DNA of 64,000 bases from Moniliella sp. 'wahieum' (lineage: Eukaryota). Under the pieces are notes generated by a model that made no database searches, was not told where the DNA came from, and saw only the letters and a program-made list of their open reading frames with translations. The translations under genes were made by a program, and so were the position numbers. Where the stretch lies: positions 434,001 to 498,000 of the forward strand of contig RSEE01000048.1 in assembly GCA_003971905.1 (NCBI GenBank). Direction: 5' to 3'. Positions 5,900-64,000 of this stretch are shown here, one piece after another. Position 1 is the first letter of the stretch, and every line of letters begins with the position of its first letter.

Positions 5900-6941
5900 T
5901 TGCGCCGCCCTTGCACTCTGCGGCAGCGAAAGGTCAACCATGCTTTGTTTCCCATATGCTCCCCCTCCGGCGACTCGGAGTGGAGGAAGAGGCTCGGGAA
6001 GTGGCGGATGGGGACAGATAGGTGGGAAGGTGCGTACGGGTGGCTCAAGCGGCGATGCGCCCGGGAGGACGGGGATAGCTGGAAGGAAGATCCGGGGTGG
6101 GTCTGGGACTGGTGTGTGGCTGCGGTGCCGATGTTGACGCCCGCAGCCTGATGGGACAGGAGAGGGGCGTGCGTTGCCAGCTTGGGCCAGCCTTGCGACT
6201 GTTCTGTCCTTCTCATCGCGGACATTGACGTTTGTCTACAGTAGCATGTAAAGAAGTGCGATGGATCGTAACATGAATACTCTACGAATGGGGGGAGGTC
6301 CATGAGGATGCTCGTGGCTCATGAGCGGCGTGAGCGGAAGGGGGTACAAATCAAACGGGGCTTATTGTTAGTACAAAAAGTGGCAAAGGAAGAGCCGTGA
6401 GGAGTAATCTGCTGTTGGCATTGGCATTGGCATTTGGATCTCACCTACCATCGGCAGCCGACTCTGCCAATTGGTCATCGTCTCGCCAGAGTCCTCTGCC
6501 GCTCGGCCCGTTGTCGGCCCGGCATCTGAGTCCGCTTCTTCTGACTCCTCTACTGGGCTTGCCTCGTTGTCCCCGCTGAAAGACAGGCGCCTGGGAACGT
6601 CGGGAACGCTTCGCATCTCGTCATTTTCCACATTGCCATCTTTGTTTCCATCTTGGTCCTCATCCACCTCTTCGCTCTCCTCGGCCCATGCAGTCGCCAC
6701 TGCCCTTCTTGCGCCCGTCGCTACCTCCCTGCGCTGGCTCGATGGGCCTTCCTCCTCTACCATCTTCGGGGACTGGACCGTGCGCCGTATTAGTCCATCG
6801 CTTGGAGTGCTCAAGAACGGTCGCGAAGGAAGGCGAGCACGGACAGACCATTTCGTATCCCAACACCACTGCAGGGATATTCAACTGGACTGTGAGGCAG
6901 TGGAACATGGGCTGGATCATGCCGGTGACGGTCGCGTACTC

Positions 6942-7122
6942 TGTCATAGTTTGGCTGATCTCGCTCCCATTTCCAATTTCTTCGTCTCGAGCGTCTCGCT
7001 CCTTCCCTGTTCCTTCCACTTCGCACCATGTCCTCTGTTCTTGCTTCTTCCCCACGAACGATTGCTACACCCCTTGGCCTAGTCCGATCCTGGTCTCCCT
7101 CGCCTTAGCCCCGACTGTGACA
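6942..7122. repeat. 3' terminal repeat (LTR-like, 181 bp), reverse complement of 12526-12706
   Basis: + strand TGTCATAGTTTGG...CCGACTGTGACA. The same peptide CHSLADLAP...LLHPLA appears in the + ORF 6471..7082 and the - ORF 12566..13336. Confidence 0.95.
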
Positions 7123-7137
7123 TTTTTGCCCCCTTTC
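7123..7137 (-). other. Polypurine tract
   Basis: Minus strand GAAAGGGGGCAAAAA directly abuts the 3' terminal repeat. Confidence 0.75.
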
Positions 7138-7139
7138 AG

Positions 7140-10100
7140 ACCTCATCTCCCGGGCGGCGACGAAGGCGAGAGAGGGCGAGTCGGCGGGCATGGGAGACAG
7201 GCTTATCGGGGTAGAGGGCGTGGAAACGAACCACTGGCTCGGCGTCATGAGACATGTCCGCAGCGGTACCCACTCCCTCTCGTGGACAGGATAGCCCCGG
7301 AAGTGAACAAAGTACTCAATGCGGCCTCCACGACCCTTGCGGCGAGAGTCGAGGACATGCTCGACCTCGTGATGAACCGCACCATCATCAGCAAACTCGG
7401 GGAGAGGAGGCGGGGGCTCGATCAAGCGGGCAGGGACCACGTCACCAGGGATGTAGGCTCGCAAGCGGGACACATGGAACACGTCATGGAGGTGTAGGTA
7501 GTCGGGGAGGCGGACCTGGTACGCGGCGCGGCCCACGGCGCGGACAATGGGAAAGGGGCCGAGGTAGATAGTCCAGGCCGTCAGAAGGCCGCTGGCTGGA
7601 CACATACCCGTCCCGACGGACCAAAACAGGCTGGCCGCAGTGAAGGAAGCCGCCTCGGTGCGCTGCTGATCGGCATAATGCTTGTAGCGTTCTTGGGCCG
7701 CGGCGAGCGTGCGGCGGGCCACCGCCTGGCCGAACGCAAATCCTCCAATATGACGCAGCATCGGGCACGGGCGAAGTGGAGGGCTCCAACTCCCCCGGGG
7801 GGAGTAACCATAGGTGAGGACAAAGGGGGACTGGTGGGTGCTCGAGTGGGAGGACTAGTTGTAGGCGAATTCGGCCGTGGGGAGGAGATCGAACCAGTTG
7901 GACTGCTGCTCGTCGAGGTAGCAGCGGAGGTACTGTTCGAGGATCTGGTTGAGTCGCTCAGTCTGGCCGTCCGTCTGGGGTGGTACGCGGTGCTGAGGCT
8001 CGACTTGATGCCCAAGTCGGCACACAAGGCTTGCCAGAAGTGGCTTGTGAAGGTCGTCCCCGATCACTCACCAGATCCCGGGGAAGGCCATGGTAGCGAA
8101 AGACCTGGTGTACAAACTGGCGTGCGAGCTGGGGCGCAGTGTCCGTCGTGTGGGCGGGAATGAAGTGACCCATTTTGGTAAAACGATCCACCACCACCAG
8201 AATCGCGTCGTAACCATTGGATCGGGGAAGCTGGGTAATGTGGTCCATCGTCAAGTGGGTCCACGGGCCTTGGGGAGGGGAAAGGGGCTGAAGGAGTCCA
8301 GCGGGTTGGTGGCGAGGCGCTTTGGTCCGTTGACAGCGGTCGCACGAGCGCACGTAGGCCCACACGTCGGCTGACAGGCGGGGCCACCAATATTGAGCGC
8401 GGACACGGGCCAACGTCTTGTCGCGCCCTTCATGGCCCGCCAATGCCGAGTCGTGGCTTGGTGGAGAATGGCAGCGCGGATCGGCGGGTCGCTGGGGACG
8501 TACACCTGGTTTCCGTGCCACAAAAGGCCGTCGCGGACCGTCAAGCATGGCGGGGTGTGCGTGGAGCCGTAGCAAGGGCCAACGAGGGTCACGAGGCAGG
8601 AGTTGGCGGATGCGCTGTCGAATCTCGTCGGCAGACACTCGCCCCACCACCGGTGTATCGGGGTCCGCCGCCATGAGCTCGAGGGCGGCGGCAGAAGTTC
8701 GGACATGGGCTCCCCAGTACTTGAGGTGCCGCGTCAGCGGGCGGGGCCCCTCAGCGAGGTCGGGACGGCGCGACAACCCGTCAGCCGCACCATTCTTCTG
8801 CCCGGCACGGTACCATAGCAGGCGTAGGGGGACAGGGTCTGGCGCCATCGGCCCTGGCGGCGGTTCAAAGGCGGGGACGGCGGAACGTAGCAATGGCCTC
8901 GTGGTCCGTAAGCACTTGGACAGTCTCAACACTTTCGACGTAATGGCGCCACACCTCCACGGCGGCCACGATGGCCAGCACCTCCTTTTCGGACGTAGTA
9001 TAGTTCAGCTCGGCCGCGGTGAACTTGCGAGAATGGAAGGCGACCGGCCGCCAACGACCGTGAACATCCTGCTGGGCGAGCACCGCACGAAGCGCCGCGT
9101 CCGACGCGTCAGTCTCGAGGCGAAGGGGGCGAGTGGGATCAAAGTGGCAGAGGAGGTGGGGCGAGGCAAAGACGCGCTTGAGCTCGGCAAACGCCTCTTC
9201 GCAGGCTGGGGTCCAAGAAAAACGCTGGTCCTTGCGTGTCAGGTCGGACAGAGGGGCTGAGATACGGGCAAAAGAACGGACGAAGTGACGGTAGTAGTTG
9301 GCGAAGCCGAGGAAGACTTGGACTTGGCGAGGGGTTCTGGGTGTTGGCCACGACCGAATCGACTCAACCTTGGACGGTCCATCCCGATCCCGTCAGGCGA
9401 AACGACGTAGCCCAGGTACTCGGTGCGGCGTGTGTGGAACTGACACTGTCGGGGTTGAGGTAGAACTTGGCCAGCTGCAGACGCCGGAGACCTCGGCAAC
9501 GTGGCGCTCGTGCTCCATCTCATTAGTCGAAAAGATGAGGATGTCGTCGAGGTATGCCAATACCGAGACGTCGAGGAGGTCACGGGGAGGTCGTTCATCA
9601 CGGCTTGGAAGGTGGCAGGGGCGTTGCAAAGGCCAAACGGCATAACAAGGGATTCAAAGTGTCCGTACCGAGTGCGGAAGGCAGTCTTACTCTCGTCGCC
9701 TTCTCTCACCCGCAACAAGTTATACCCCCACGGAGGTCAAGCTTGGTGAAGCGGGCCCCCGAGAGCGGTCCAACGAGTCACTAATCAGAGGCAGCCAACC
9801 GGTTCTTGATCGTAACCGAGTTGAGCGCACGATAGTCCACGCACAGGCGCAACGAGCCGTCCTTCTTTTTGACAAACAGGACGCCGCGCCGAAGGGAGAC
9901 TTGGATGGACGGATGAACCCTGCAGCCAGGTTCTCCTTGAGCCACTGGGACAAGGCCTGCATTTCGCCCGTCGACAAGGGGTAGAGGCGAGTGAAGGTGG
10001 GGGCGGCGCCGGGGACAAGGTCGATGGCGTGATCGGCGGCACGATGGGCGGGGAGCGTCTTAGCCCCTGACTTGGAAAAGGCGCTAAGGAAGGAGTGGTA

Positions 10101-11135
10101 GCGGGGAGGGACTGTCTGGCGGACGTGCTCGAGGTACTCGGGTGTGTCACACTCGTCGGGAAACATTGGCTCGGGACCGCCAGCGACCGCGACGGACGAG
10201 ACGGCCAACTCGGGCTCAGGGGGAAATGCGACGTTTACCATGGCCTCGGGTTCCTTGACCACCTCGAGCTCAAACTGCTCCAGAGAGAGAATGTCAATAG
10301 GCGGTCCAGACCGAGAAGGCAAGGAGGGACCCGGGCCAGAGGGCGCCGAGGAGGGGGTGTGGGGAAGAGGCTGCGTACCGCGCGACGGGGGGTGGGACGA
10401 AGTGGGTAAGAGAGGGGAGGGGACGGGCTGGGAGGGACCGGGAGGGAACCGAGGAGGAAAGGAATCGAGTTGACAGAGGGGGGCGAGATGGGGTTAGATG
10501 GGGAGGTGGACTTGGGCCGGGGCCCGGGCGAGTGCTGGTGCTGGTGCGTAGTCTTGGTCTTGGGCTGGTCTTGGTGCTGGGGCTGGTCTTGGTGCTTGGT
10601 CTGGTCTTGGTGCTTGGGCTGGTCTTGGTGCTTGGGCTGGTCTTGGGGCTTGGGTGGGGGTTGGGGCTGAGGCCGGGGTACAGTCGTGGAAGGCATATGG
10701 TGATCACGGCACTGCACCTTATCAAAGTAAAGGGTGTGCGAGGGGTAGTCGGTGCTGGGGTTGTGAGTCTCAAGGAAAGGGAGGCCGAGGATGAGGGGGT
10801 GATGGAGGGAAGTGAGGAAGAACTCCTCAGTTGAGACATGGGAGCCGATCACGACAGGCGCCTTCACCGCTTGGGTCACCAGACCCGAGGAAATGGGACG
10901 CCCGTCTACCACCCTGACGACCACAGGCGACGGCAGCGTGCGAGGAACCAGGCCATGCTGGCGGGCAAAACCATGGTCCATGAAAATACTGTTCGCACCA
11001 GAGTCGACCAAGGCGGTGACCGGGATCGGGGAAAAGGGAGACGGAGACGAGGGGCCAGGATGCAGATGGGCGAGTACCGTGAAAGACCGAGAGGAGGGGG
11101 GACAGGGCCCCACTGCCGCCTCAGACAGAATCAGC
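7140..11135 (-). CDS. Pol polyprotein (aspartic protease, RT, RNase H, integrase, chromodomain); many frameshifts
   Basis: ALVDSGA (PR); [28 protein letters not shown] and YLDDILIFS (RT); [20 protein letters not shown] (RH); [41 protein letters not shown] and YLGPFPI (IN); [29 protein letters not shown] (chromodomain). Confidence 0.92.
10535..10632 (-). repeat. 18-bp tandem repeat (QPKHQD-like) in the PR-RT linker
   Basis: About 5 copies of CAGCCCAAGCACCAAGAC variants on the minus strand. Confidence 0.85.
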
Positions 11136-12484
11136 GGCGGGGCCGAGGAGGCGGCGGGGAGACCTGGACGTGGGGCACTCGGCAATGAGGTGGTCACGGG
11201 AACCGCAGTAGAAGCACGCACCTTGAGCGCGGCGCTCGGTGCGCCGTGCCGCCGCTTCGGCGGTGGCGGTGGCTGCGCTGAGGTCCATGGGCTCGGCTTC
11301 GGGCGACGAGGGCCGAAACCAATGATTGCCGCCCGATCCCGGGGAGGTTGCGGTACCATGAGCGCCCAACGATTGCGATTGGTCGATGTCAATGGCCGCT
11401 GTGCGCAGTTGTTCGAAACTGATCCGTCCAAAGTGAGCCGACTCGCCGCGGGAGGCGATTGCGTCACGCACCCGCGGCTTCAAGCCGTACAGAAAGTGAT
11501 AGTAGCGGTCCTCATCCGACGCGTTGGGGTTCCAGCGACGCAGCAGAACCGTGAACGTAGCGGAATAGTCCGCTGCAGATCCCGTCTGCCGAAGACGACC
11601 AAACTCCTCAAACGCCTTCAGCGCCGGGTTGCGCTCGCCCCACTGCTCCAGGAAAGCTGCGCGAAACGCAGGCCAAGACCGGAGGGCGGGTGTGGTGCGC
11701 GCCTCCAGGGGAAGGGCCACCTCCGAACCGAACTGCTCGACCCAAGTGAGGGCCTCCCCCTGCAGCAGGCCCATGAAGCGGTCGATCCATGCCGCCGCGC
11801 CCAGATGCGTGAGGGCGACGCGCGCGTAAATCTCGAAGGAGGTGACGACGTGCTGGGCCTGGACCCGGTCCCGAGAGTTGGGATTCGCACCAGACGACGG
11901 GCGGAAACGAACGGGCTCGAACATCTTCGGCTCTTCCGACACCTTGTTCGGGATGGCGGTCAGATCACCATAAGGCCCAGGGGCGGGAGCGGGGGCGGGG
12001 CCCGAGGACACCACGCCAGTTTGAGCCTCCCGTACCGAGGCGGCCAACCGGGCCTCTTCCGCGGCGAGCGCCGCCTCCTCCCGCCGCTGACGGAGGCGGT
12101 GCTCACGGCGCTTCGCCTCTTGCTCATCCTCGAAAGCGCGGCGCTGGTCCTCCTGGGCTGCAAGGTAGGCCTGGTGTTCCCGGGCCTCCGTCAACAGAAG
12201 CTGGCGCATTCTGCGGGCCTCATCGACCCGGCGCTGAGCGGCCTCGAGGTCCAGGCCGGACAGGTCGGAGGCAGGCAATGTATACCCCGGGGGCGCGGGC
12301 GCAACAGACGGAGCTGCATGGGGGGGTTCAGAGGGGCCAGCCGGGTGGAACCACTCCGGGCCATCGTCGTCGAACGGAGCGTCAGAGGGGGGTCGGACGG
12401 GGGTCGGATCGGGCCGCGCCGCGCGATGGGGTGCGGCGCGCTAGGGTTACTGGGGTCATGGGGGTTGTCGTGGATCGAGGACAT
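11121..12484 (-). CDS. Retrotransposon Gag with CCHC zinc knuckle
   Basis: ORF 11121..12278 contains LLQGEALTW, LRQTGSAADYSATF, FLYGLKPRVR, EPMDL and CFYCGSRDHLIAEC. Probable ATG at 12484 with one frameshift. Confidence 0.88.
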
Positions 12485-12514
12485 CTCTGGTCGGGCTCGC
12501 CTGTTGACGGTTAG

Positions 12515-12523
12515 ACGAACGAT
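12515..12523 (-). other. Putative self-priming primer-binding site (Tf1-type)
   Basis: ATCGTTCGT lies 2 nt downstream of the 5' repeat and is complementary to ACGAACGAT inside that repeat (12594-12586). No tRNA-type TGG PBS. Confidence 0.65.
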
Positions 12524-12525
12524 AA

Positions 12526-12706
12526 TGTCACAGTCGGGGCTAAGGCGAGGGAGACCAGGATCGGACTAGGCCAAGGGGTGTAGCAATCGTTCGTGGGGAA
12601 GAAGCAAGAACAGAGGACATGGTGCGAAGTGGAAGGAACAGGGAAGGAGCGAGACGCTCGAGACGAAGAAATTGGAAATGGGAGCGAGATCAGCCAAACT
12701 ATGACA
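12526..12706. repeat. 5' terminal repeat (LTR-like, 181 bp)
   Basis: + strand TGTCACAGTCGGGG...CCAAACTATGACA, the reverse complement of 6942-7122. Confidence 0.95.
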
Positions 12707-12857
12707 TACCCACAGCCTTTCCTCGGGAGGAACCAAGTGGGACTGCAGTGGAAACGGTGACCGTCTTGGCACTATGCTCCCAATCCTACTTGACCGACTT
12801 GGGCTGAAACGCTGACGCAGACCGATCGCTTCGTTGACGATATGCCGTACACAAACC

Positions 12858-13116
12858 AAGAGAAGAAAGAGACAGAGAAAGAGAAGAGAAGAGAAGAGAG
12901 AGGAAGAGAAGAGAAGAGAGAAGAGAAGAGAAGAGAAGAGGAAGAGAAGAGAAGAGAAGAGAGAGAAGAGAAAGAGAAGGAGAGGAAGAGAGAGAAGAGA
13001 AGGAAGAGAAGAAGAGAAGAGAAGAGAGAGAAGAGAAGAGAAGAGAAGAGAAGAGAAGAGAGAGAAGAGAAGAGAAGAGAAAGAAGAGAAGAGAAGAGAA
13101 GAGAAAGAGAAGAAAA
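12858..13116 (+). repeat. Homopurine (GAGAA)n-like microsatellite, ~260 bp
   Basis: Essentially only A and G on the + strand. Confidence 0.95.
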
Positions 13117-13263
13117 TAGGAAACCACAGAAGAAAATAGGAAACCCACCCTTGTCTAGCTGCCTGACGTGTTCCCCAGGCCCATTCGAGCAATGCAGTGG
13201 AAAGTACACAATCGGTACTTTCCACTGCTGTGACGCTGGGACCCCAGTCTCCCCAAATAAACA

Positions 13264-13380
13264 CATGGCTAATCGAAATTTCTGGTGCACAATCTTGTGG
13301 GCCTTGCCCACCTTGAATTTCGTACGTAGTCCTCACATATCTATCCGGAACCTTGTTACCGGCATTTTCGATTAGCTATG
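13264..13380. repeat. 117-bp repeat unit 1 with ~15-bp terminal inverted repeats (MITE-like)
   Basis: CATGGCTAATCGAAA...TTTCGATTAGCTATG; near-identical to 13642-13757. Confidence 0.8.
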
Positions 13381-13641
13381 CAGGCAAGATACCGATTCGA
13401 GCGGTCCACGTCGGCGGCATCCTCACAGTGGTCGGCACAGTGGACCGTATTGAGCAGGATGGGTAGTTCGCTGCGTCGACGGCTCGTCGATATCCTGGCT
13501 GTTGTCCCCCCTCTTTGCGGCCATGGCCCCACACTGCCTCGCCCCCACCCTTGCACCAACACGTGCCGATACAGCATCGAGGTGAACACCTCAGTTCGAT
13601 GCGTACAGTATGCCTCGCCTACCATACCCGCTGCACCAACG

Positions 13642-13757
13642 CATGGCTAATCGAAATTTCTTGTGCACAATCTTGTGGGCCTTGCTCACCTTGAATTTTG
13701 TACGTAGTCCTCACATATCTATCCGGAACCTTGTTACCAGCGTTTCGATTAGCTATG
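13642..13757. repeat. 116-bp repeat unit 2 with terminal inverted repeats (MITE-like)
   Basis: Direct-orientation copy of 13264-13380 with a few substitutions. Confidence 0.8.
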
Positions 13758-14300
13758 CGGACATGGTGGGATTCGATTGGCTCCTTCTGTCCATTCGCCC
13801 CTGTCGTAAGCAATGGCAACGGTGTCGGCCCCGCAGCCTCCTGATGGCCACTTGCATATCTACAGGCAACTCGGCGGCGCTACATCAGGCCCAGCGTACA
13901 CGGGCGAGGGAACGAGCGCACTAAATCATGACAACTAGGGGGGAGGGGGGGAAGCGTGTCTGTGTGTATTTTTCGTTTGTCAAACCAACCGAGGAGATGG
14001 ATCGCCGTCCAGGGCCAGGCCAGGCCCGGCCGGGCGAGAAAAACAAAAGAAACCAAAAGAGAAAAGAGAACCAAGAAAAAAGTGTCCGTTCCATTGGCCA
14101 GGCTGCCCAGAACCGCAGTCCGTCGGCTTCGTCTCAATCTCACCACATGTTACAAAAAACAGAGAAACAAAATAGAGAGTGGATGGAGCCAAGAGGTGGA
14201 GGGTTGGAGGGGGAGGGGGGAATAAATGTCCGGGGGAGAAAGGGGGGGAGGAATGGCAACGCAACATCGAATAGCCTGCCGCGCTGCGCTGCCGGGACGA

Positions 14301-15757
14301 CTAGCGCACCAGTCCGCGTGCCAGCCAGGGCGCCGTACTGTGCTCGGAAATCGGCGAGGTTTCAGTAAACGTATCGCCATAGAACGGCTGCTGCGGACCG
14401 GGCGGATCCGCCGTCGGAGCCGCCTCGTCGTCCGAGAAAAAGTCAATGGTGGCCAGGCCGAGACGGATGCGGGCCGCACGCACTTCTTGCCGCTTGATGC
14501 GCGACGAGGCACGTTTGGCCTCCTCGGGCTCCACGCCCAACTCATCCGAGTCGGTCCGGGTGGGACTGCTGTTGTCGCCTTGTTCGCCCGAACCGTGGGA
14601 CCCGGCACGGGCCGAGGCGGCAAGGTGCCGCATTCGGTTCCCCGCGCGGACCGCATGCACTGCCGCGCGCCAGCGCAGCCGATGGTTCTCCCGCAGCGCC
14701 TCGGAGATGTCCTGCGTCGGCTGGCTGCCCGGCTGGGCGAGCCAAGGATGGGCGAGGGCCTGGCGGCGGTGATGCGCTGAGCTGGATCGACCGTGAGGCA
14801 GCACTTGACAAACGCCTTGGCCGGGTCCGAAATGCGGTCCCAGTGCTTGGAGTGGAACTGCACCTTGCCCTCTTTGGTGGCTGCCGCCAAGTGGCTCGGG
14901 TCGTCGTTGCGAAAGGGAGTATAGCCACAAAGGAGTGTGTAGGTGATCACGCCCAAGCTCCACAAGTCGACGGGGGTACCATGGCCTTGGCGCGAAAGGA
15001 TTTCGGGCGCAGCGTAGCCCAGGGAACCGGCCACGGACGTTAACACTTCCTCGGGCGTATGCAGCGCACGAGCAATCCCAAAGTCCACCAGCACCACGTC
15101 CGCGTCCTGCGCCTTGGACCGGAACAGGATGTTCTCCGGCTTGACATCGCGGTGGACCACGCCATGCTCGTGCAGGTACGCCAGTGCACTGGCCACCGAA
15201 CGCACCAAGTCCGCCGCATCGCGCTCGGAAAACTTGCCGCGCGCAATCAGGCAGTCAAACAGCTCTCCGCCATCCGCCAGCTCAAACACGAGATAGTACT
15301 TGTCCCGGCTCTCAAACCAGTCCAAGAGCCGGACAATGTGCCGGTGCGGCGGCGACAGGCTCGCCAGCACGCCAATCTCCGACTCGACAAACTCGGTCTT
15401 GCCGCGCAGCACTTTTTTGGGAATCACCTTGATGGCCACTTTTTGCCCGGGCTGGGCGCGCGACTCGGTCGCGCCAAAGCTTCGGTCGCCCGTGCGCACG
15501 CTGCCCGACGGCGGCGACTCGCGGTCGGGGTGCGGCGGGGAGCCGGGCGGGGCGGTGGGCGCGAGCGGGTCGGGCTCGTGGCTGGGGGGCGCAGGCTGGC
15601 GCAGCTTGCGGGGACTGGCGGGGCTCGGGGCGGCGAGGCGGGTGGCGAGGCGGACGGTGCCAAAGGTGCCCTCGCCCAGGACAGAGGAGAAGGCATAGAG
15701 CTTCTTGCGCGAGTACGAGTCGGGCTGGCGGCCAAGCAGGTGCTTGACGTTGACCAT
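14301..15757 (-). CDS. Ca2+/calmodulin-dependent protein kinase (CAMK1/CMK family)
   Basis: [33 protein letters not shown] and DLWSLG motifs. After a frameshift, ALAHPWL and a CaM-binding-like [18 protein letters not shown]. Confidence 0.9.
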
Positions 15758-16100
15758 GGCGGGGGGGGCGACGGACACGCTCGCCAGCCAAGCTGCAGGA
15801 CGGGGCGCAGGTGGCGCGGGCGGTGGTGGCGGAGACGCAGGCGGCGCAGGTACGTAAGCCCGCCGCTCGTACTCAGCACAGCGCTCGGCCCCCGCACGGC
15901 GCCTGTGTGGGTGTTGGCTATTGATGGGGTGGGAATATGCACGCTTGTTGCCACCGCCGCACGCCTGCAACTTTCAACCGGCGCCCCTCGACGCTACCCC
16001 ATGTCGCCGCAGCCTCGCTTCAAGCTTCAATATCCAAGCCGCACGGTGGTCGACTGCGGTCGGCCCGGGTAAGCTGGTCGCCCCCCCGCCGCCCTCCCCC

Positions 16101-19661: not shown

Positions 19662-22472
19662 TCAAGCCAGCGTGGCCGCCGCATGCGACAGCACCACCTT
19701 GCCCGTCTCCTTGACCTTGGCCACAAACACCACCTTCTTGTCCTCCTTCCACAGCTCCGTCACCACCGTCTCGCCCGGGAAGACAGTCGAGGCAAAGCGC
19801 ACCTTGACCGACGAGATGGGGCCGTACGTGTCGACGATCGCCTTGGTCGCCACGGCAAACGTGCAGAGACCGTGGAGGATCGGGCGAGAAAAGCCGCCAA
19901 TCTTGGCAAAGTCGGGATCAATGTGCAGCGGGTTAAAGTCGCCGCTGAGGCGGTACAGCGCCGCCTGGTCCGGGTTGGTCGTACGTTCCACCACGGCGTC
20001 CGGCGCGCGCGTCGGCGGCGTATTGACCGCACTCGCTTCCCCACGGTCATTGCCCGTCTTCTTGCCGCCAAAGCCACCGGCGCCACGGATAAAGACGGTA
20101 GACTGGTTCTCAAACAGTAGGTCCCCAGACTCCTTTTCGTACGTCTTGGTCACCGTCGTCACTGCCGCCGCCTTGCCCTTGTCCAGCACCTCCAGCAGCG
20201 CAGGCTTGTTGACCAACGTGCCCGCCACCGGAATCTCCTTGTAAATCTTCAGGTACTGTTCGCCGTGCAAGAGCATCATCGGGCTAAAGTTGGGCAGCCA
20301 GTCGAGCGGGAGCGAGGACGAGGCGGCAAACTGCGGAATGACACCAAACGTGGGCAAGGCCTGGAAGTCGTCCGCTTGCTCAAACGTGTAGTTGAGCTCG
20401 GTCGCCTTGGCCCCCACACCGAGGTTGTACAGAATGACATCCTTCTCCTCGTACGTGTACTCCGAGGGCTCAACCGCCTGCTGCTTGGCCTCCCGGACCA
20501 ACTCGGGGTCCTCGGGATCAATCAGCGACGCCTCCCCACCTTCCTCAGCCTCCTCCACCTCGTCCCCCTCGCCATCCAAGTTGGCCATAATGTCGCCCAG
20601 CGCCTCCTGCGTGTCCGCGGGCCAGCTGGCGCGCTCCGGGTCAAAGTCAAAGATGCGCGTGATGCGCGCGGCGACCTTTTCGGGGGTAAGGGGCGTCTGG
20701 TGGCTAAACGCCACTCCGCCCGCACGCTCCCAGCGCACAGCGGCCACCCAGCCACCCGACACCTCAAACAGGCCCTTGGTCACCTCGTCATTGTCCTCCG
20801 AAGCCAGGTAGGCAACCAAGGGCGCGACAAAGTCGGGCTTAAACGCATCCACCATCTCCTGGGGCCAAATTGTCGCCGTCATGGCCGTGCCAGCGTTCGG
20901 GGCAATGGATGGTATTGGCCAAAATTGTACTTGGCACCCTCAATCGACAGGGTTTGCGTCAGGCCCAGGATGGCCGCCTTGGCCGTCGAGTAGTTGGCCT
21001 GGCCAAAGTTGCCATACAGCCCAACGGCCGAGTGGTGTTGACAATGCGGCCGTACTTTTGTTGAGGAGGAAAATGGGCCAGGCAGCCTTGCAGATCGAGT
21101 AGGTGCCACGCAGGTGCACGGCCACCACCACCTTCCACTCCTCATCCGTCATCGAGGCAAACGACTTGTCGCGCAAAATGCCTGCATTGTTGATCACGGC
21201 GTGCAACCCGCCAAACGCCTTGACCGCCGCGTCGACAATCTTCTGCCCATCCTCCACCGAGCCAATCGCCGGCGCCGCCTTGCCGCCCGCCTTCTGGATC
21301 GCCGCCACCACCTCGTTTGCATTCTTTTCCGAAAAGTCATTCACGACCACATTCGCACCCGCCTTGCCAAACAAGAGCGCATACGCCTTGCCCAGCCCAG
21401 CGCCGGCACCCGTAATCAGCACCGTCTGCCATCAAACCGCACCTCGCCTTCCTGCTCATTGGCAGGGGCCTTCTTGGCGCGCTCGAGCAGCTCCAGGTGG
21501 TTGGCATCCGTAATCGAGGTGGGGTACTCCACTTCGCCATCAAAGTCGAGAATGTCATCAATCTTGGCCTTGATCGCAGCGGGGGTAAAGGTGTCGTCGG
21601 CGCGGGAAGACGTGGCCCTTGGTGCGTTGACGACGCAGCCCAGCATTGAAGCCGGCACCCGACTCGATCAGCTGGCCCGTCACATCCGCATTGGCAGCAC
21701 TGACAAGGTAGGCCACCAGTGGCGCCACGTACTCGGGCTGCAGCTTCTCCAAAATCTCCGGCGGCATCACCGTCGCCGTCATTTGCGACGCGGCAATCGG
21801 CGCAATCGTGTTGACAAGAATGTTGTATTTGGCGCCCTCGATCGACAGGGTGCGGGAAAAGCCGTAGAGACCCAGCTTGGCCGCACTGTAGTTGGCTTGG
21901 CCAAAGTTGCCATAGATGCCAGCGGCAGAGGAAATGTTGATGATACGTCCATACTAGAGCGAGGCAAAAAGACAGGCGGGGGGGAGGGGGGTCAGCAAGG
22001 ACCACAGCAAAACAAGAGGAGAGAAAAACAACATACCTTTTGCTTGCGCATGTAGGGCCAGGCAGCATGCGCACAGGCGTAGGATCCCGTCACGTGGACC
22101 GCAATGACCGCGTCAAACTCAGCCGTCATGGCCTTGAAGGACTTGTCGCGCAAGATGCCGGCATTGTTGATCACAATGTCGATCCGGCCCCAGGTGTCGA
22201 CAGCCTGCTTGACCAGCTTGTCGCCCTCAATGTTCGAGTTGTAGTTGGCAATCGCCTCGCCGCCGCGGCCTTGATTTGGGCCACGACGACATCGGCCGCC
22301 TTCTTGCTCTTGTCCTCCACGCGGGGCCCAGGTCATTCACCACCACCTTGGCGCCGCGGCTGGCGAGGAGCACAGCATACGCCTTGCCAATACCGTTGCC
22401 GGCGCCAGTGACGATGGCCACGCGGTTCTTGAAGGAGATGGCGCCGTTCTCGAGCTCGGGAAATTCAGACAT
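19662..22472 (-). CDS. FOX2: Peroxisomal multifunctional beta-oxidation enzyme (two SDR dehydrogenase domains plus hydratase 2)
   Basis: Two TGAGxGxGKAYA / [11 protein letters not shown] / YGNFGQANY domains and the hydratase motif [22 protein letters not shown]. Intron 22036-21954. Confidence 0.95.
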
Positions 22473-24322
22473 GCGGGAGAAAAAGCGGGGCGCTGGGTGG
22501 GAAGAGCGCGGCGGCGGCGGCGGTGCGCGCGTTAAATGGTCCAGGGGGGGGGGGGGGCGGGTGAAAGGAAGGCGGCGGCCACACGGCGCCAGTGCCGCGT
22601 GCCAGCGCCTGGGCCTGCCTGCCCCAGCGCCGCCTGCGCCCGGCTGCCGGCCCGGACGCCGCCGTGGGGGGCGGACACGGGCAACCCTACCGCCTAAACC
22701 GCACACGGCGGGGCACGGGGGCAGCGGGGTGGGGCGATGACGTACTCCTGCCGCCCGCCGCGTCAGCGTGCTGCGTGACACGTGAAAAGCGCACGGCCCG
22801 CCCGCGCCAACCCTAACCAGCTCCCCACACACGCCGGAGCTACAGCTGGTGCTCCCACAGAAAACACGCCACTCGGCCGGCTCTCGAGTCCCGCTTTGGG
22901 CTTCATATTCAACCTGAATCGCTATGCTAGCACCCCCTTGTTGTGGCCCCAGAAGCCCAGTTGGACAATGCCTCCCTCCGCCCATCGCGTGCTGCCCGCA
23001 GCGCAACGCCGCTTCCCTCCAACCCATCATTACAGCCGCACCAGTTAAAGCACCCCCCGCTCGGCAGCTCTGCGCTGGTGAGCAGTCTTTCCTGAGGGTT
23101 CAGTTGGCACTGCGACCAATTGGCTACTCCAGAGCGTCTTGGAGCGCGGGCGTCAATGGTTCAGTGTGCTACTCTTTTTGGATGTTGGCCCGAGCCGCCG
23201 GACATCGTGGCATCGTCCACATGCCCACCACCGTTCGAGAGAGAAGTACAAATGTAGAACAGCTCTTCGATTTACTCCAATTGATTTTCAGACTCGATTC
23301 AACATGTTGAGAGAGTTACCTCATTCATCAATATATTGTGTCGTTTTGTCCGGGCGCAGGTTACGGTAACCGGAGATGGAGATGAAGTAGGGCCTAAATA
23401 GTGGCGACGCAAATGGATTGCATGTCGGGACCAGGGCGGGGCGGGGAAGTGACCCCTCGGGAGGCGGGGGACGATCCTTGAGGCACTGTGATCGGAGGGC
23501 GGTGGGGTCAACGAAGAGTCGTTGCCGTCGGAGATATCGTCCATCTTGGGGCGGCCGCGTTGGGTTCACAACGGCGCGGCGGTTGGACATGGGATGGGAA
23601 GGAGTGAGGTAGGGCGGAGAGAGATGTCCAACAAGATGGGATGGGTGCCAGTTGGGCTAAAACAGCCAGGAAGGCTGAATGGGATCTCAAACCTAACATA
23701 CGTAACAGGAAATAGAGATGGGGCAAAGGATGAGGATCATATTGATCGAGTGGAAAGAGGGCGAGAGGTATACATGCTCGGAGAAGAAGAGAACATGCGA
23801 ACCAAGTCGCACTGAGAAGGAAGGGGGAGCATAGTCAAAGGGGGGAAACATGGTCTAGAACAAATCAGGGAGACCAGTCAACCTGGTGACTAGAAGTAGG
23901 ACCAGGCGGGTCCGATCCCGACACCATACGGCACTGTGCCAGAATTGTCCTCCACCCAGTGCTCCTGCACAGCCTACTAGTACGCTACGATCTTGGTCTC
24001 TCTTCGCACCCACTCGGACTCTTTCACACTTTCATTCTTCCGCACAGAGAACTCGAAATGGGGCACCTGGCCAGGGGGGTACGGGGGAGGAGGAAGGAAG
24101 GGAGAGTGATGGCCCCAAGAAGGGGAGGGGAAACGAGGTCCAATAGCCTCTGGGTGGGATGCACCGGTGTGCGCGAGAGAGTGAGATGCGCATGTATACA
24201 TTGGCTCTTCATCGAGGGCCGCGCCGCGTCCCATCTCTCCCAGCCTACGCACCTACCCGCCATACGGGCAGACGTCTGGTGGGCGGACACGTGTCGATTG
24301 GTGCGGCTCGCTCGCTCACCGC

Positions 24323-34850: not shown

Positions 34851-35065
34851 AAAATAACGGAACTCCTAGGCCTGATGAGAAGGGACTGAAGGTACGTTGG
34901 CCAAAGCACACGAGCCACCCGGTGGCCCAACACGACTGTTGAACCTTTTCTGGATCATTACGAGACGGGGTTGAGCTTTTGGAAATGGTTTGCAAGAGGC
35001 CTTTTTGGCAACAGTATATGTTTGGTTTTCCCTTCTGTCACCGCTTCCTTCAATCGTTTTGTGGG

Positions 35066-38000
35066 CGGGCTCCAACTCCCCCCGGGGAGAGAGTTACCAT
35101 CAGTGAGGACACACAGGAACTGGTGGGTGTGGGGGTGCTCGAGTGGTGGGAGGACAAGTTGTTAGGCACCGCGGCCGTCGAACCACAATTGGATTGCTGT
35201 TCGTCGAGGTAACAGCGGAGGTACTGTTCGAGGTCCTGGTTGAGGCACTCGGTATGGCCGTCGGTCTGGAGGTGGAACGCGGGGCTGAGGCTCGACTTGG
35301 TACTCAAGTCGGCACACAAGGCTTGGCAGAAGTGGCTCGTGAAGACCGGTCCCCGATCACTCACCAGATCTCGGGGAAGGTCATGGTAGCGAAAAACAGG
35401 GTGTACAAACTGGGGTGCGACTTGTGGCGCGGTGTCCGTCGTGTGGGTGGGAATCAAGTGACCCATTTTGGCGAACCGATCCACCACACCATCAAAATCG
35501 CGTCTGTGACCATTGGATCGGGGGAGCTGGGTGATGTGGTCCATCGACAAGTGGGACCACGGGCCTTGGGGAGGAGGAAGGGGCTGAAGGAGTCCGGCGG
35601 GCTGGTAGCGAGGCACTTTGGTCCGTTGGCAGCGGTCGTACGGGCACACGTAGCCCATACGTCGGCTAACAGGTGGGGCCACCAATATTGAGCGCAAACA
35701 CGGACGAGCATCTTGTCACGCCCTTGGTGGCCCACCAAGGCCAAGTCGTGGGCTTGATGGGGGATGATAGCGCGGATCTGCGGGTCGCCAGGGATGTAGA
35801 CCTGGTTACAGCGCCACAAAAGACCTTCGCGGACCGTCAAGGCATCATGGCGGGGTGGATGTGGAGCCGTGGCAAAGGGGACCAACGAGGATCGCGGGGC
35901 ACCAGTTGATGAATGCGCTGTCGGATCTCGTCGGTAGACACGCGCCCCACCACCGGTGTACTTGGGTCCGCCGCCAAGAGATCGAGGGCGGCTGCAGAAC
36001 GCTCGGACACGGGATCCACTGGCAGTACCTGGGGTGCCGCGTTGGCGGGCCGGGACCCTTCAGCGAAGTCAGGATGGCGCAACAACCCGTCCGCCGCACC
36101 ATTCTTCGGTCCGGCACGGTACACCATAGCAAGGCGGTAGGGGGACAGGGTCTGGGGCCATAGGCCCTGGCGGCGGTTCAACAGGCGCGGGGACTGAAGA
36201 AAGTACTAACAATGGCCCTATGCTCTGTAAGTACTTGGACAGTCTCAACACTTTCGATATAGTGGCGCCACCCCTTCACGGCCACCACGATGGCCAGCAC
36301 CTCCTTTTCGGACGAGGTGTAGTTCAGATGCGAGGTCACGGTGAACTTGCGAGAATGGAAGGCGACCGGCCGCCGACCACCGTCCACACATCCTGCTGGG
36401 CGAGCACCTCGCCAAACGCCGCGTTCGAAACGACGGTCTCGAGGCGGAGGGGGCGAGTGGGATCAAAGTGTGGCAGAGGATGTGGGGCGAGGCAAAGAGG
36501 CGCTTGAGCTCCGCAAACGCCTCTTCGCAGGCTGATGGGGTCCAAGAACAAACCCGCTGGACCTTGCGTGACAGGTCGGACAGTGGAGCCGAGGTATGGG
36601 CAATAAACGGACAAAGTGACGGTAGTAGTTGGCGAAGCCGAGGGAGACCTGTACTTGGCGAGGCCTTCTGGGTGTTGGCCACGACCGAATCGACTCGACC
36701 TTGAACGGGTCCATCCCGATCCCGTGAGGCGAAACGGCGTAGCCCAGGTACTCTCGGTGCGGGAGGTGTGGAACAGACACTTGTCGGGGTTGAAGTAGAA
36801 GAACTAGGCCCGCTGGAGGCGCCGGAGGACCTCGGTAACGTGACACTCGTGTTCCCCCTCTCGTTAGTCGAAAAAATGAGGATGTAGTCAAGATTATATG
36901 ATATATGCAAGGACCGAGACGTCGAGGGGGTCGCGGAGGATGTCGTTCATCATAGCTTGGAAGGTGTGGCAGGGGCGTTGCAGAGGCCAAAGGGCATAAA
37001 AGGGATTAAAAGTGCCCGTCCCAAGTGCGGAAGGCAGTCTTACTCTCGTCGCCTTCTCTAACCCGCAACAAGTTATACGCCCCATGGAGGTTGAGCTTTG
37101 TGAAGATGCGGGCGCCCGAAAGGATATCCAACGAGTCGCTAATCAGAGGCAGGGCCAGCCGGGTTTTGACCGTAACTGAGTTATGGAGCGCCCGATAATA
37201 GTCCACGCCCAGGCGCAGCGAGCCGGCCTTCTTTTTATAAAGGACGCCCGTGCCGAAGTGAGAGACTTGGACGGACGGATGAAACCTGAAGCTAGGTTTT
37301 CCTCGAGCCATTGGGACAAAGCCTGCATTTCGTCCGTCGACAAAATTAAAGAGGAAGAGATGAGAGAAGATGAAGGCGGCGCTGGGGACAAGATCGATGT
37401 TGGCCTGAACTGCGGCACAATGGGCGGGAAGCGTCTTAGCCCCTGGCTTGGAAAAGGCGCTAAGGAAAGAGTGGTAGCGGGGAGGGTCCGTGTGGTGGTT
37501 GTGCTCGAGGTGCTCGGGTGTGTCAAACCGGGAACATTGGCTCGGGACCGTTAGCGACTGCGACGGACGAGAAGACGTCCAACTCGGGCTCGGGGGAGAA
37601 ATGGGACGTTTGCCATGGCCTGGGATTCCCTAACCACCCCAAGCTCAAACTGCTCCAGAGAGAGAAGGTCAATAGGCGGTCCAGACCGAGAAGGCAGGGA
37701 GGGACCCGGGCCAGAGAGCGCAGAGGACAGAGGGTAATGGGAAGAGGCTGCGTGCCGCGCGAGGGGGAGTGGGGAGAAGTGGAGAAGGGAGGGGAAGAGT
37801 GGACAGGCTGGGAGGGAACCGTGGTGGGAAAAGGAATCGAGTTTACAGAGGAGGACGGGGTGGTGGTACATGGGGACGTGGATTTGGGCCGGGGCCCGGG
37901 CTGATGCTGGTGCTGATGCTGGTGCTGGTGCTGGTGCTGGTGCTGGTGCTGGTGCTGGTGCTGGTGCTGAGGCACGGTCTTGGATCGAATATGGTGTGAT

Positions 38001-38985
38001 ATCACGGCACTGCAAGTTATCAAAACGAAGAGTGTGCAAGGGTCGTCGGCGCTGGGGTTGTGAGTTTCAAGGAAGGGGAGAACGAAGATGAGGGGGTGAT
38101 GGAGGGAAGTGAGGGAAAACTCCTAAATTGACACATGCATGGGAGCCACCGCTTGGGTCACCAGATCGTAGGAAATGGGACGCCCATCCACCACCCTGAC
38201 GACCAAATGCGACACGGCAGCGTGCGAGCAACCACCGGCCAGGCCGGCGGGCAAAGCCATGGTCCATGAAAATGCTCTTCTCACAACAGAGTCGACCAAG
38301 GCGGTGACTGGTATCGGGACGAAGGGAGACGGAGACAAGGGACCAGGATGCAGATGGACGAGTACCGGAGGAGGGGGAACAGAGAGCCTCACGGCCGCCT
38401 CAGACAGAATCAGCCGGGGGACCGGGGAGGCGGCGCGGAAACTTGAACATGTTGGGGCACTCGGCAATGAGGTGGCCACGGGAGCAGCAGTAGAAGCACG
38501 CGCATTGAACACTGCGTTCGGTGCGCCGGGCCGCCGCTTCGGCAGTGGTAGTGGCGGCGCTGAGGTCCATGGGATCGGTCTCGGGGGATGATCGATGACG
38601 GCCGAAACCAACTATGATTGCCGCCCGATCCCGAGGAAACTGCTGTACGTGAGCGCCTGGCAAGTGGGATTGGTCCATGTCAATGGCCTCTGTGCGCAGT
38701 TCTTCGAAACTGATCCGTGCAAAGTGAGCCGGCTCGTGGCGGGAGGCGATTGCGTCACGTACCCGCGGCTTCAAACCGTATATAGGAAGTTCCAGTAGCT
38801 TCCTCATCCGACACGTTGGAGTTTCAGCGACGCAGCAGGACCGTGAATCAAACGCCTTCTGCGCCTGATTGCGCTCGCGCCACTGCTTCAGAAAGGCTGC
38901 ACGAAACGCAGCCCATGACTGAAGGCGGGCGAGGTGCGCGCCTCCAGAGGAATAACCACCTCCGAACCGAACCGCTCCACTCAAC
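35066..38985 (-). mobile_element. Degenerate, doubly truncated copy of the 6942-12706 Gypsy family (partial gag to integrase core; no LTRs or chromodomain)
   Basis: Colinear with ~7781-11740: [57 protein letters not shown] and QTDGHTECLNQ. Many indels. Confidence 0.9.
37903..37968. repeat. (TGCTGG)n hexamer microsatellite in the PR-RT linker of copy 2
   Basis: About 11 units, at the position where copy 1 has the 18-bp repeat. Confidence 0.85.
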
Positions 38986-41245: not shown

Positions 41246-43116
41246 ATGGTCTCTGCATCCAAGGCCAAGCGCCAAGCCGAGAAGGCAGCCTAGAACCCCA
41301 AAGACGCCAGCTCGTCCAAGACGTCCAAGTCCAAGTCTTCCAAGGCCTTCAAGAGCACCGATGCCACCTCCGCTGATGGCGCGGACGGTGCGGCCGACCA
41401 GATGAAGAAGTTGGAACTGGCGACGGACCGCAACGCGTCTGGTGTTCTTACATCCGACGTGCAGTCCCGCGACGTCCATATTGACAACTTCTCCATGTCT
41501 TTCCATGGCCGTCTTCTTCTCGATGGCACTTCCATCAAACTTAACTATGGCCAGCGGTACGGTCTGTTGGGAGAGAATGGTTCGGGAAAGACAACGCTGC
41601 TGGAGGCAATCAACGGGCGTGACGTCGAGATCCCAGAGCACATTGATATTCACCTTGTCCAGGGTGAGGTGGAACCATCGGAGATGAACGCGCTCGAGTA
41701 CTGCATTGCTTCCGCCAAGGAGAAGGTGGAGAAGTTGGAGAAGCGGATTGAAGATGTGTCGGCGACCGACGATGTGGACGAATTGCTGATTGAATCGATG
41801 TACGAGGAGTTGGATGCGCTCGACCCTTCCACCTTTGAGGCGAAAGCTTCTTCCATCCTCCACGGCCTTGGGTTTACGGTCCAGTCAATGAAGAAGCCTA
41901 CGAAGGACTTGTCTGGTGGCTGGCGTATGCGCGTCTCGCTCGCCCGTGCCCTGTTCATCAAGCCCCACATGCTTCTCCTTGACGAGCCGACCAACCACTT
42001 GGATTTGGGAAGTGTTGTGTGGCTGGAGGCCTACCTGGCCAAGTACCCCAACATTCTCGTCCTCACGTCTCACTCCGCTGACTTTATGGACGAGGTGTGC
42101 ACCAACATTATCGACCTGACGATGGACAAACAGCTGGTTTACATGGTGGAAATTATTCCACCTAAGTCCGGGTTAAAAAGGAGAATGAGGTGAACCAGAT
42201 GAAGGCGTACTACAAGCAGCAAGAGGAGATTGCAAAGATCAAGCGCTTCATTGCCTCAGCGGGTACGTATGCCAACCTGGTCAAGCAGGCCCAGTCCAAG
42301 CAAAAGATTATCGATAAGATGGAGGCTGCAGGCTTGGTTCAGCCAGTACGCAAGCCTAAAAAGTTGCGGTTCAACTTTGAGGATGTGGCACGCTTACCGC
42401 CACCCAACATCGCTTTCTCCGACTGGCCTTCTCCTACGGGCAAGAAGGAAGACTACTTGTACAAGGGTCTCGAGCTCGCAGTCGACATGGATTCGCGCGT
42501 TGCTATTGTTGGGGCCAACGGGACGGGTAAGTCAACCTTGCTCAATCTCATGACTGGTGCACTGTCTCCCGTCGAGGGAACCGTCAACCGCCACCCATCG
42601 ATCAAGTTGGCCAAGTACTCGCAACATTCGGCTGACCAGTTGCCCTACGACAAGAGCCCACTTGACTATATGGAATCCAAGTATTCTCAAAAGTTTCCCA
42701 ACAAGGATGTCCAGTTTTGGCGCGGCCAGATTGGCCGGTTTGGCCTGACAGGCTCCCACCAAACGTCGGAGATTCGTACGCTGTCGGATGGGTTGCGGAA
42801 TCGGGTGGTGTTCTCCCAGTTGGCCATGGAATCGCCCCACATTATTCTCCTGGACGAGCCAACGAACCATCTGGACATGACCTCGATTGATGCCCTTGCC
42901 CAGGCCATCAACGAATTCTCGGGCGGCGTGTTGATTGTCTCGCACGATTTCCGCCTGCTCAAGGCAGTGGCCAAGGACATTTGGGAAGTTCGCGATGACC
43001 GGATTGTCAACTTGACCAAGGAGGAAAACTTGGACATTGACGGTTACAGGAAACGCCTCCACGCCGAAACGGCTGAGCAGATCAAAAAGGCCGAGCTGCT
43101 CACCAAGCGCTCGTAA
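41246..43116 (+). CDS. ARB1: ABC-F family ATPase (ABCF2/Arb1)
   Basis: MVSASKAKR..., two ABC domains (GENGSGKTT, LSGGWRMRVSLA, LLLDEPTNHLD; GANGTGKST, LSDGLRNR), linker RFIASAGTYANLVKQAQSKQKIIDKM. In-frame TAG at 41291 and a shift/TAA near 42143-42165. Confidence 0.93.
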
Positions 43117-62887: not shown

Positions 62888-63707
62888 TCAGATCTCACCT
62901 TTACCCAGCGGTCTGAACTGGTGGTAGTACGCGCGCAATCGTGCTTCACATGTGGTAGGAAAGACTCAGGCAGGCTAGCGATTTGGCGTCCTGAGAGGTA
63001 TGGAAGTCGGTTAGTGGTTGTGACGGCAGCACGGACAAAGGAAGGACGGTGGTTGCGCACCCGGTGAGCCTGCCCATACAGTCAGACTGGAGACCATGGT
63101 ATTGGGGCGAGAATGGTGCCGTCTAGGATGACGGCCGAGTCCTTGATATAGCACCACCGCCCCACCACGCAGTTGCGGCCAATGTCGACATGGCTTCCAA
63201 TCGCCGAGGCCTGGATGATGGAGCCAGGCCCGATGCGGACATAGTCCCCCATTTTGAGGGCAAAATAAGAAAAGGAGCCCTTGTAGGTCTTGTACGGCGG
63301 GCGGAGAATGCTGCCATCGTCAAAGAGACAGTACCGTCCGGTGGAAATGACGACGCCAGAGCGCTGCTGGACGGCGGCAAGAGCAGCAGCTCGTTGGGCA
63401 GCTTGCTTGGTCGCCGCCGTTCCCGCCCCGTCTGCGGCCGTGTGAGCTAGGCTGCTGGCGGGTGGGGCGGCAATAGGCCGTTTGAGGTCACCACGAAGAA
63501 TGACACCCGCCTTGATAATGCACCGGCCACCGAGCATGATGTTGCTGCTGCCTTGGATCACGGCACGGCGAGAGACCTTGTTCCGGGTGGGGTTAGTGAT
63601 GACATACTCGGCCACATGGTACGCTGGCACCTGCTCCGCCCACGATGCATGGTCCGACAGACGGCAGCAGCGGAAGCCATCGGGTGCTGGGATACCGCCA
63701 TGGCCAT
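62888..63707 (-). CDS. DCTN5: Dynactin subunit 5 (p25), left-handed beta-helix
   Basis: EYVIT..NKVSRRAVIQGSSNIMLGGRCII..ILRGDL, GRYC..LRPPYKTYKG.FSYF.LKMGDYV.IG, IGSHVDIGRNCVVG..IKD and WAGSPG. Intron ~63060-62991. Start uncertain. Confidence 0.88.
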
Positions 63708-64000
63708 ACACACTGTGTTTGAGGCAGGCGTGAGGGCGAAGGGATAGAGAGAACAGTGAGAGGGTCAGGGCACTGCGAGGGGGGAGATGGTGCGCGTGGT
63801 GGCTTCAGGACTCCGGCCTACAGAATGCGCTTGCCTGGTGGTGGGGACCCTTTGTGGGTGCCCTGCAATCCTCCGTTCATTAATCATTGCCCGCGCCAAC
63901 CCGCCCTGGAAATTTGTCCCAGGGGCGTAGGAGGTGGAGTGCAGTGCTTGCCAGGGTCCTGGGCATGGGATGTTAGTACTTAGTACTTGGTATAAAAAAG

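Follow-up and report, generated by a model that had tools for sequence, protein, structure and literature searches.

Ty3/Gypsy chromoviruses of the Tf1/Sushi group and of the Tcn1 clade (e.g., Tf1 and Tj1 of the fission yeasts) are bounded by short long terminal repeats (LTRs) with TG..CA ends, and encode gag, protease (PR), reverse transcriptase (RT), RNase H (RH) and an integrase (IN) with an SH3_Tf2-1 domain and a chromodomain, followed by a polypurine tract (PPT). Their primer-binding site (PBS) has no match to a tRNA 3' end and can pair with a segment within the 5' LTR. According to PMC4600332 and PMC6317226, this self-primed reverse transcription was first shown for Tf1, and Tj1, the Tf1/Sushi group and the Tcn1 clade are predicted to share it. 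Here we describe an element that shares all these traits and lies between positions 6937 and 12711 of a window of 64,000 nucleotides of Moniliella sp. 'wahieum' (assembly GCA_003971905.1, contig RSEE01000048.1, positions 434,001 to 498,000 of the forward strand), the window being the whole stretch of DNA that was analysed. Judged by its genes and cis signals, it would be a self-priming Ty3/Gypsy chromovirus that fails the defining feature of direct LTRs. Indeed, the likeness is one of genes and cis signals, whereas the 3' LTR is here reversed and the coding region is dead.

Single provirus-like copies in which one LTR is inverted relative to the other have been described among endogenous retroviruses (ERVs). 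HERV-K124 is a provirus with an inverted LTR, held by its authors to be a rare rearrangement; as described there, its inverted LTRs are truncated, the locus holds three LTRs, and Hughes and Coffin 2002 (Genomics 80:453) is cited for a possible mechanism (PMC3625200). A foamy-like ERV of the guppy is likewise stated to have an 'inverted LTR' (PMC5210030). Both are vertebrate retroviruses, whereas in the fungal element the inversion is exact and full-length and a putative flank duplication is kept. Inverted terminal repeats also bound the retroelements of the DIRS-1 type, whose two inverted LTRs are not identical to each other and which carry a tyrosine recombinase as well as an internal complementary region (ICR) (PMC7192593). 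On the contrary, our element possesses identical arms and DDE integrase domains; no tyrosine recombinase was found among the 44 open reading frames (ORFs) scanned on both strands, and no ICR was detected, the best matches between the arms and the interior being 10 nt long (E 0.71). A DIRS identity was rejected on these grounds. The Ginger1 and Ginger2 transposons are also close in some respects, with a Gypsy-type integrase, terminal inverted repeats (TIRs) of comparable length (here 181-183 nt) and Gypsy-like TGT..ACA termini. According to the description of Ginger1, its TIRs measure 40-270 bp, its duplications are CCGG/CCGT, and its transposase carries OTU or Ulp1 and comes with no RT (PMC2836005). 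Ginger elements are without gag, PR, RT and RH, whereas all four are present here between flanks reading TACTC and TACCC. Since RT and gag are present, the flank match is unfit and neither an OTU nor a Ulp1 domain occurs in the 44 ORFs scanned, this identity was rejected as well. In our literature searches, inverted LTRs turned up in DIRS papers and in sporadic ERV cases and in no Gypsy or chromovirus element, which is a weak negative because LTR pipelines require direct repeats.

We consider it rather probable that the element is a self-priming chromovirus, solitary and long dead, in which an accident specific to this copy turned the 3' LTR around; its two arms would since then have stayed identical or become so. 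The terminal signals of the element are the following.

6937-6941, no strand: putative target-site duplication, left copy TACTC, matching the right copy at 4/5 positions
6942-7122, plus strand: PPT-side arm (3' LTR, the element itself being on the minus strand), matching 12526-12706 at 100% as its reverse complement; its U3-R-U5 reads on the plus strand, flipped relative to the element
7123-7137, minus strand: polypurine tract, sense GAAAGGGGGCAAAAA, adjoining the left arm; its last two A (7123-7124) lengthen the inverted repeat to 183 nt
12515-12523, minus strand: primer-binding site ATCGTTCGT, 2 nt (TT, 12524-12525) past the LTR and complementary to LTR positions 113-121
12526-12706, minus strand: PBS-side arm, 5' LTR in canonical orientation (TGTCATAG...CTGTGACA), assigned from the repeat and the PBS position
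12586-12594, minus strand: putative self-primer and start of R (ACGAACGAT), the complement of the PBS, with a CT-rich tract just before it, read by eye
12707-12711, no strand: putative target-site duplication, right copy TACCC, assigned by flank comparison

Over 183 nt, the stretches 6942-7124 and 12524-12706 are reverse complements of each other without a mismatch (100%), and blastn of the arms gives 181/181 and 183/183 identities. The TG..CA-bounded unit itself measures 181 nt, the two extra paired bases standing at its inner side (AA on the polypurine side, TT on the other arm). In the whole window, this is the only inverted pair of at least 80 nt; no direct repeat joins both ends of the element. 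No third LTR copy and no solo LTR was found in the window (blastn, word size 7, E 1e-3), the two arms being the only matches. A 30-nt LTR pattern gave 0 matches in a collection of bacterial and archaeal contigs, which has little weight for a fungal element, and a scan of such contigs for the integrase ORF matched 514 pattern stretches and confirmed none of them, which likewise weighs little. The LTR has its own imperfect terminal inverted repeat (TGTCATAG versus TGTCACAG), and both outer termini of the element read TGTCATAG. Beyond the 5-nt TGTCA termini, its self-complementarity is limited to one CTCGAG hexamer. The outer flanks, TACTC on the left and TACCC on the right, agree at 4/5 positions; an agreement at 4/5 or more is seen with a frequency of 0.019 among random pairs of 5-mers taken from the window. 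When the empty site was rebuilt in silico, three ORFs spanned the junction, none with a known domain; spurious GC-rich ORFs are common. The element has TG..CA termini, its PBS follows the 5' LTR and its PPT precedes the 3' LTR. The initial annotation had read from the letters alone the inverted 181-bp arms without mismatch, the imperfect terminal repeat of the LTR, the 4/5 flank match, the PPT adjoining the 3' repeat, the Gag and PR-RT-RH-DDE integrase-chromodomain content and the lack of an ICR; all these observations stand, with the arms in fact reaching 183 nt.

The element reads on the minus strand with Gag at its high-coordinate end; therefore, 12526-12706 is its 5' LTR and 6942-7122 its 3' LTR. 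The PBS tells which of the two is misplaced. Its 9 nt (positions +3 to +11) pair 9/9 with ACGAACGAT at LTR positions 113-121, and they do so only in the present orientation of the gag-side arm, the best match to the flipped LTR orientation being 7 nt. Among shuffled LTRs, 6/20000 gave a complement of at least 9 nt starting within the first 7 positions. Since 9-mers match by chance elsewhere in the 5.4-kb interior, the significance of the PBS depends on its position. When the RNA from LTR position 113 to the PBS is folded, its first 9-11 bases pair with the PBS (minimum free energy -18.9 kcal/mol). The pairing fits the signature of Tf1/Sushi-type self-priming, and would place the predicted transcription start at 12594, the head of the self-primer. 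The CT-rich tract that precedes this putative start would have a promoter meaning. Priming by a tRNA was rejected in favor of self-priming: the PBS has no TGG start, and ARAGORN finds 0 tRNA genes in the window. Because the PBS pairs only with the gag-side arm as it stands, we conclude that this arm is in the canonical working orientation and that the PPT-side arm is the reversed one. Moreover, a self-priming PBS implies a lineage that would use the canonical LTR cycle.

In the established scheme of LTR replication, strand transfer uses the homology of the R regions. The flipped arm has no such R homology beyond the 5-nt termini, so that canonical strand transfer could not use it and, under this scheme, should be impossible for this copy. 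Its RNA would end in the complement of U5-R, and the minus-strand strong-stop DNA would then meet its own sequence at the RNA 3' end instead of the complement, with nowhere to transfer. In the reading that we favor, the reversal is therefore no means of replicating. The U3-R-U5 polarity of both arms points inward.

Between the arms, the Pfam matches comprise Retrotrans_gag, zf-CCHC, an aspartyl protease, RVT_1, RNase H, the zinc-binding and core domains of the integrase, SH3_Tf2-1 and Chromo. Read in the minus-strand sense of the element, they follow the order Gag, PR, RT, RH, IN (RT before IN) and chromodomain. They are distributed as follows, all on the minus strand.

11121-12440, minus strand: Gag ORF with Retrotrans_gag (Pfam) and, at 11216, a CCHC knuckle; an ATG in a different frame, at 12484, is its likely start
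10235-11479, minus strand: protease ORF fragment with DSGA at 11005 (Pfam and translation)
10511-10684, minus strand: 18-nt tandem repeat of about 8 units, a KHQDQP-like spacer between protease and RT (repeat scan; translation of ORF 10235-11479)
9239-9736, minus strand: reverse transcriptase fragments, RVT_1 profile positions 78-138, with positions 146-177 in the overlapping ORF 9393-9653 in another frame
8865-9392, minus strand: RNase H ORF fragment (RT_RNaseH_2, E 2.1e-33; Ty3 RT/RH 4ol8, E 1.8e-18)
7958-9004, minus strand: integrase zinc-binding domain (Integrase_H2C2, E 2e-19) and initial part of the DDE core (rve, E 6.7e-4, under the curated cut-off); the ORF fragment matches 7q5b at E 6.3e-29
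7105-7854, minus strand: C-terminal ORF fragment of the integrase with SH3_Tf2-1 (E 6.4e-12) and chromodomain (Chromo, E 1.3e-5)

The Chromo match, downstream of SH3_Tf2-1, is marginal (25.4 bits for a cut-off of 25.1). The best relatives of solved structure are the Ty3 Gag-Pol (7q5b, E 6.3e-29) and the Ty3 RT/RNase H (4ol8, E 1.8e-18). The integrase ORF has 470 protein matches, the best at 49% BLASTP identity, and the named ones belong to Chara, Closterium, Haematococcus and Rhodosporidiobolus; the Gag ORF has 0 relatives at E 1e-5. A 588-aa open frame without any Pfam match runs antisense to gag (10803-12569, plus strand); it most likely stems from the high GC content and is not a gene.

The coding region is nevertheless far from the 'complete' element of the initial annotation. 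At least seven stop-to-stop ORFs, lying in three frames, make it up, RVT_1 being divided among three ORFs in different frames, and the YxDD box cannot be read in any natural RT ORF, so that no open gag-pol frames remain for an autonomous element. We aligned it in a frameshift-aware way with the closest protein found (P0001), used as reference over about 1050 codons at 57-60% identity. The alignment requires 20, 17 and 14 frameshifts in pol at penalties 14, 25 and 40, with 1, 1 and 3 stops. At penalty 25, the frameshifts (7262-9886) show a strong deletion bias, 14/17 being a single lost base and 3/17 a gained base. An assembly error was rejected as the source of these breaks. Indeed, host ORFs of 607, 757, 554 and 425 aa stay open in the same window, the last one matching, along 98% of its length, the multifunctional beta-oxidation enzyme of Tilletiaria anomala at 71% identity, and another database protein at 93%; therefore, the breaks in the element are not assembly noise. 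The proposal that identical LTRs and a target-site duplication mark a single recent and complete integration is contradicted by the decayed interior as far as completeness is concerned, and the same decay makes the identity of the arms puzzling.

Apart from this element (copy 1), the window contains one other family member and no second inverted-LTR copy.

35064-38984, minus strand: second family member (copy 2), truncated at both ends, without LTRs and more decayed than copy 1, found by blastn against 7778-11745

Copy 2 is 80% identical to 7778-11745 by blastn and 85.5% identical in the aligned columns, with 552 substitutions and 63 gaps. At the protein level also it is cut, lacking the N-terminal half of gag, the integrase's C-terminal end and the LTR, and it has 10-19 frameshifts and 2-5 stops (10 lost-base and 4 gained-base frameshifts). 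The frameshift sites of the two copies are mostly distinct, only 3 being near-coincident among the 17 of copy 1 and the 14 of copy 2. The spacer also differs: where copy 1 has its 18-nt repeat (about 8 units, 10511-10684), copy 2 has a 6-/12-nt GCTGGT repeat (37876-37981), and the presence of different repeats at the same place marks the linker between protease and RT as a variable low-complexity region. The three-way comparison with P0001 separates the losses of each lineage. Over 870 codons aligned in copy 1, copy 2 and P0001, all agree at 393, copy 1 alone deviates at 39 and copy 2 alone at 115; from these counts, copy 1 would have lost about 7% of the ancestrally conserved residues on its own lineage.

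This private decay bears on the age of the arms. From the 39 replacements that are private to copy 1 at conserved codons, and from its 17 frameshifts over about 3.2 kb, we roughly estimate a private decay of about 3% substitution and about 0.5% indels per site. Two arms of 183 nt evolving independently at such a rate should, we infer, differ at about 13 sites; 0 differences are observed, for a Poisson probability of about 1e-6. This discrepancy calls for gene conversion, for late copying, or for damage already carried by a dead parent, which would have been mobilised in trans shortly before the insertion. The perfect identity of the arms is most likely not a sign of youth, but the product of gene conversion or late re-copying. 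The arms may have evolved in concert, through gene conversion between inverted repeats, or one of them may have been re-copied late from the other; gene conversion between LTRs is reported to be common (PMC7251063). The single mismatch in the 5-bp flanks is also weakly consistent with an old insertion. Furthermore, recombination cannot reduce inverted LTRs to a solo LTR; this may explain why an old copy has kept both arms, and such a copy would be able to outlast those with direct LTRs.

The solitary chromovirus that we favor would have arrived as a normal insertion made by the integrase, with a 5-bp duplication that now matches at 4/5 positions. Three routes could have produced the flip, i.e., an in-place inversion through the AATGTCA...TGACATT terminal repeat of the LTR; a snap-back at the cDNA stage, in which the plus strand would have jumped to its own 5' LTR from the PPT/AA junction; or the end-joining, in the wrong sense and before integration, of a complete LTR that had come loose. 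The 183-nt repeat and the retained duplication are expected from each of these routes. Two other routes were rejected by reasoning: recombination between the LTRs of two inverted elements, in which the crossover inverts the intervening DNA and never the orientation of an LTR, and autointegration, whose inversion circle would rearrange the interior, which is yet colinear. Several points weigh against this reading as a whole. No scar or microhomology tells the flip routes apart, and any choice among them is conjectural. The qualification of 'one-off' rests on priors and mechanism, with one full-length copy examined. The argument on age fails if the damage came from a dead parent mobilised in trans, in which case the identity of the arms could reflect a recent insertion, and efficient conversion between 183-bp repeats lying 5.4 kb apart in this fungus is an assumption. 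The 4/5 flank match could be due to chance, which is expected in 2% of cases, and the RNA fold that accompanies the PBS pairing is modest (z -1.86, with 10/200 shuffles folding equally well).

Among the other explanations, a recent aberrant insertion ranks first, and we regard it as unlikely. In such a scenario, a defective family RNA would have been reverse-transcribed in trans by an autonomous relative and its 3' LTR inverted before integration, by a plus strand snapping back on its own 5' LTR at AA/TT or by the end-joining of a detached LTR, and the integrase would then have used two identical U3-type ends. The complete identity of the arms would here be read as youth, the 2 nt (AA/TT) by which the repeat is longer are exactly those of an LTR end before processing, and the TGTCATAG termini found on both outer sides are plausible integrase substrates; the intact PBS and PPT and a flank match that fits a single integration event point the same way. 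However, this scenario requires a helper element and none is seen, the other family member in the window being a dead fragment, and the searched databases gave no close protein relative (at best 49% in BLASTP for the integrase, and 0 for Gag). Moreover, a fresh duplication should be perfect, whereas here it matches at 4/5 positions, and most of the frameshifts are private to copy 1 when compared with copy 2. An error of the assembly, in which a 3' LTR that is direct in the real genome would have been mis-oriented, appears very improbable. Exact identity of the arms is expected of a collapsed or copied repeat, yet the junctions of the arm with the PPT and with the flank are unique past the terminal repeat of about 10 nt, so that the assembler would presumably have needed spanning reads, and the assembly around the element is accurate, the long host ORFs being intact.

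Least probable of all, in our view, is an architecture shared by a whole family, i.e., chromoviruses that propagate with inverted LTRs, through a non-canonical reverse transcription or through DNA movement by a Gypsy integrase acting on identical TGTCATAG ends, as a Gypsy-to-Ginger intermediate. The perfect 183-nt terminal inverted repeats, the TGT..ACA ends and the 5-bp flank match are what such elements would display, and the length of the arms falls inside the 40-270 bp range given for the TIRs of Ginger1 (PMC2836005). They would also be systematically missed, LTR finders being described as requiring direct repeats (PMC6317226), and the literature on Gypsy elements gave no report either way. 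Nevertheless, the PBS and the PPT stand at their canonical positions and the self-primer implies a standard cycle, the flipped arm offers no R homology, and neither an ICR nor a tyrosine recombinase accompanies it. The copy is dead, a second inverted-LTR copy or a solo LTR is absent from the 64 kb, and transposition as DNA would not renew the identity of the arms. The initial annotation had left the choice between such an undescribed architecture, or Gypsy-to-Ginger intermediate, and a one-off flip of the 3' LTR. The first proposal finds no support in an element that lacks R homology in its flipped arm as well as a recombinase and an ICR, that encodes RT and gag, and whose flanks are not CCGG/CCGT. 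The second one is favored by the solitary dead copy, by the self-priming PBS and by the reversal of the PPT-side arm, with the flip through the terminal inverted repeat retained as one candidate route only.

The surroundings of the element contain other repeats. About 150 nt from the gag-side arm, a purine-only, GA-rich microsatellite extends over about 280 nt (12858-13140). Just outside the element, two units of about 120 nt (13260-13381 and 13638-13758), 94% identical and 378 nt apart, are each flanked by a 23-nt imperfect inverted repeat (CATGGCTAATCGAAATTTCTGGT / ACCGGCATTTTCGATTAGCTATG) and look like a miniature transposon of the MITE (miniature inverted-repeat transposable element) type. 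Host genes at 14150-15973, 19662-23099, 41294-43116, 54496-56791 and 63082-63804 include a protein kinase, a multifunctional beta-oxidation enzyme, an ABC-F ATPase, an SNF2/RING helicase and dynactin subunit 5. The GC content of the host DNA is about 60%. Besides the Tilletiaria protein, the best named matches of the host ORFs come from Testicularia, Violaceomyces, Pseudozyma, Tilletia and Malassezia; these matches and the dynactin-5 gene identify the host as a fungus of the Ustilaginomycotina.

For the biology of these elements, the locus means that the identity of LTRs is unreliable as a measure of insertion age, since 0/183 differences stand here beside an interior with 14-20 frameshifts. 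It also suggests that a copy with inverted LTRs is spared the reduction to a solo LTR, and that its arms can evolve in concert. As annotation tools need direct repeats, inverted-LTR copies would escape them; if many independent copies of this kind exist, they would bear on the kinship of the cut-and-paste Ginger transposons and the LTR retrotransposons. Finally, if the promoters of both arms fire, the whole element would be transcribed convergently, in sense and in antisense, a possible source of double-stranded RNA, and, if this is true, such a convergent-promoter locus would serve as a natural silencing trigger for the family.

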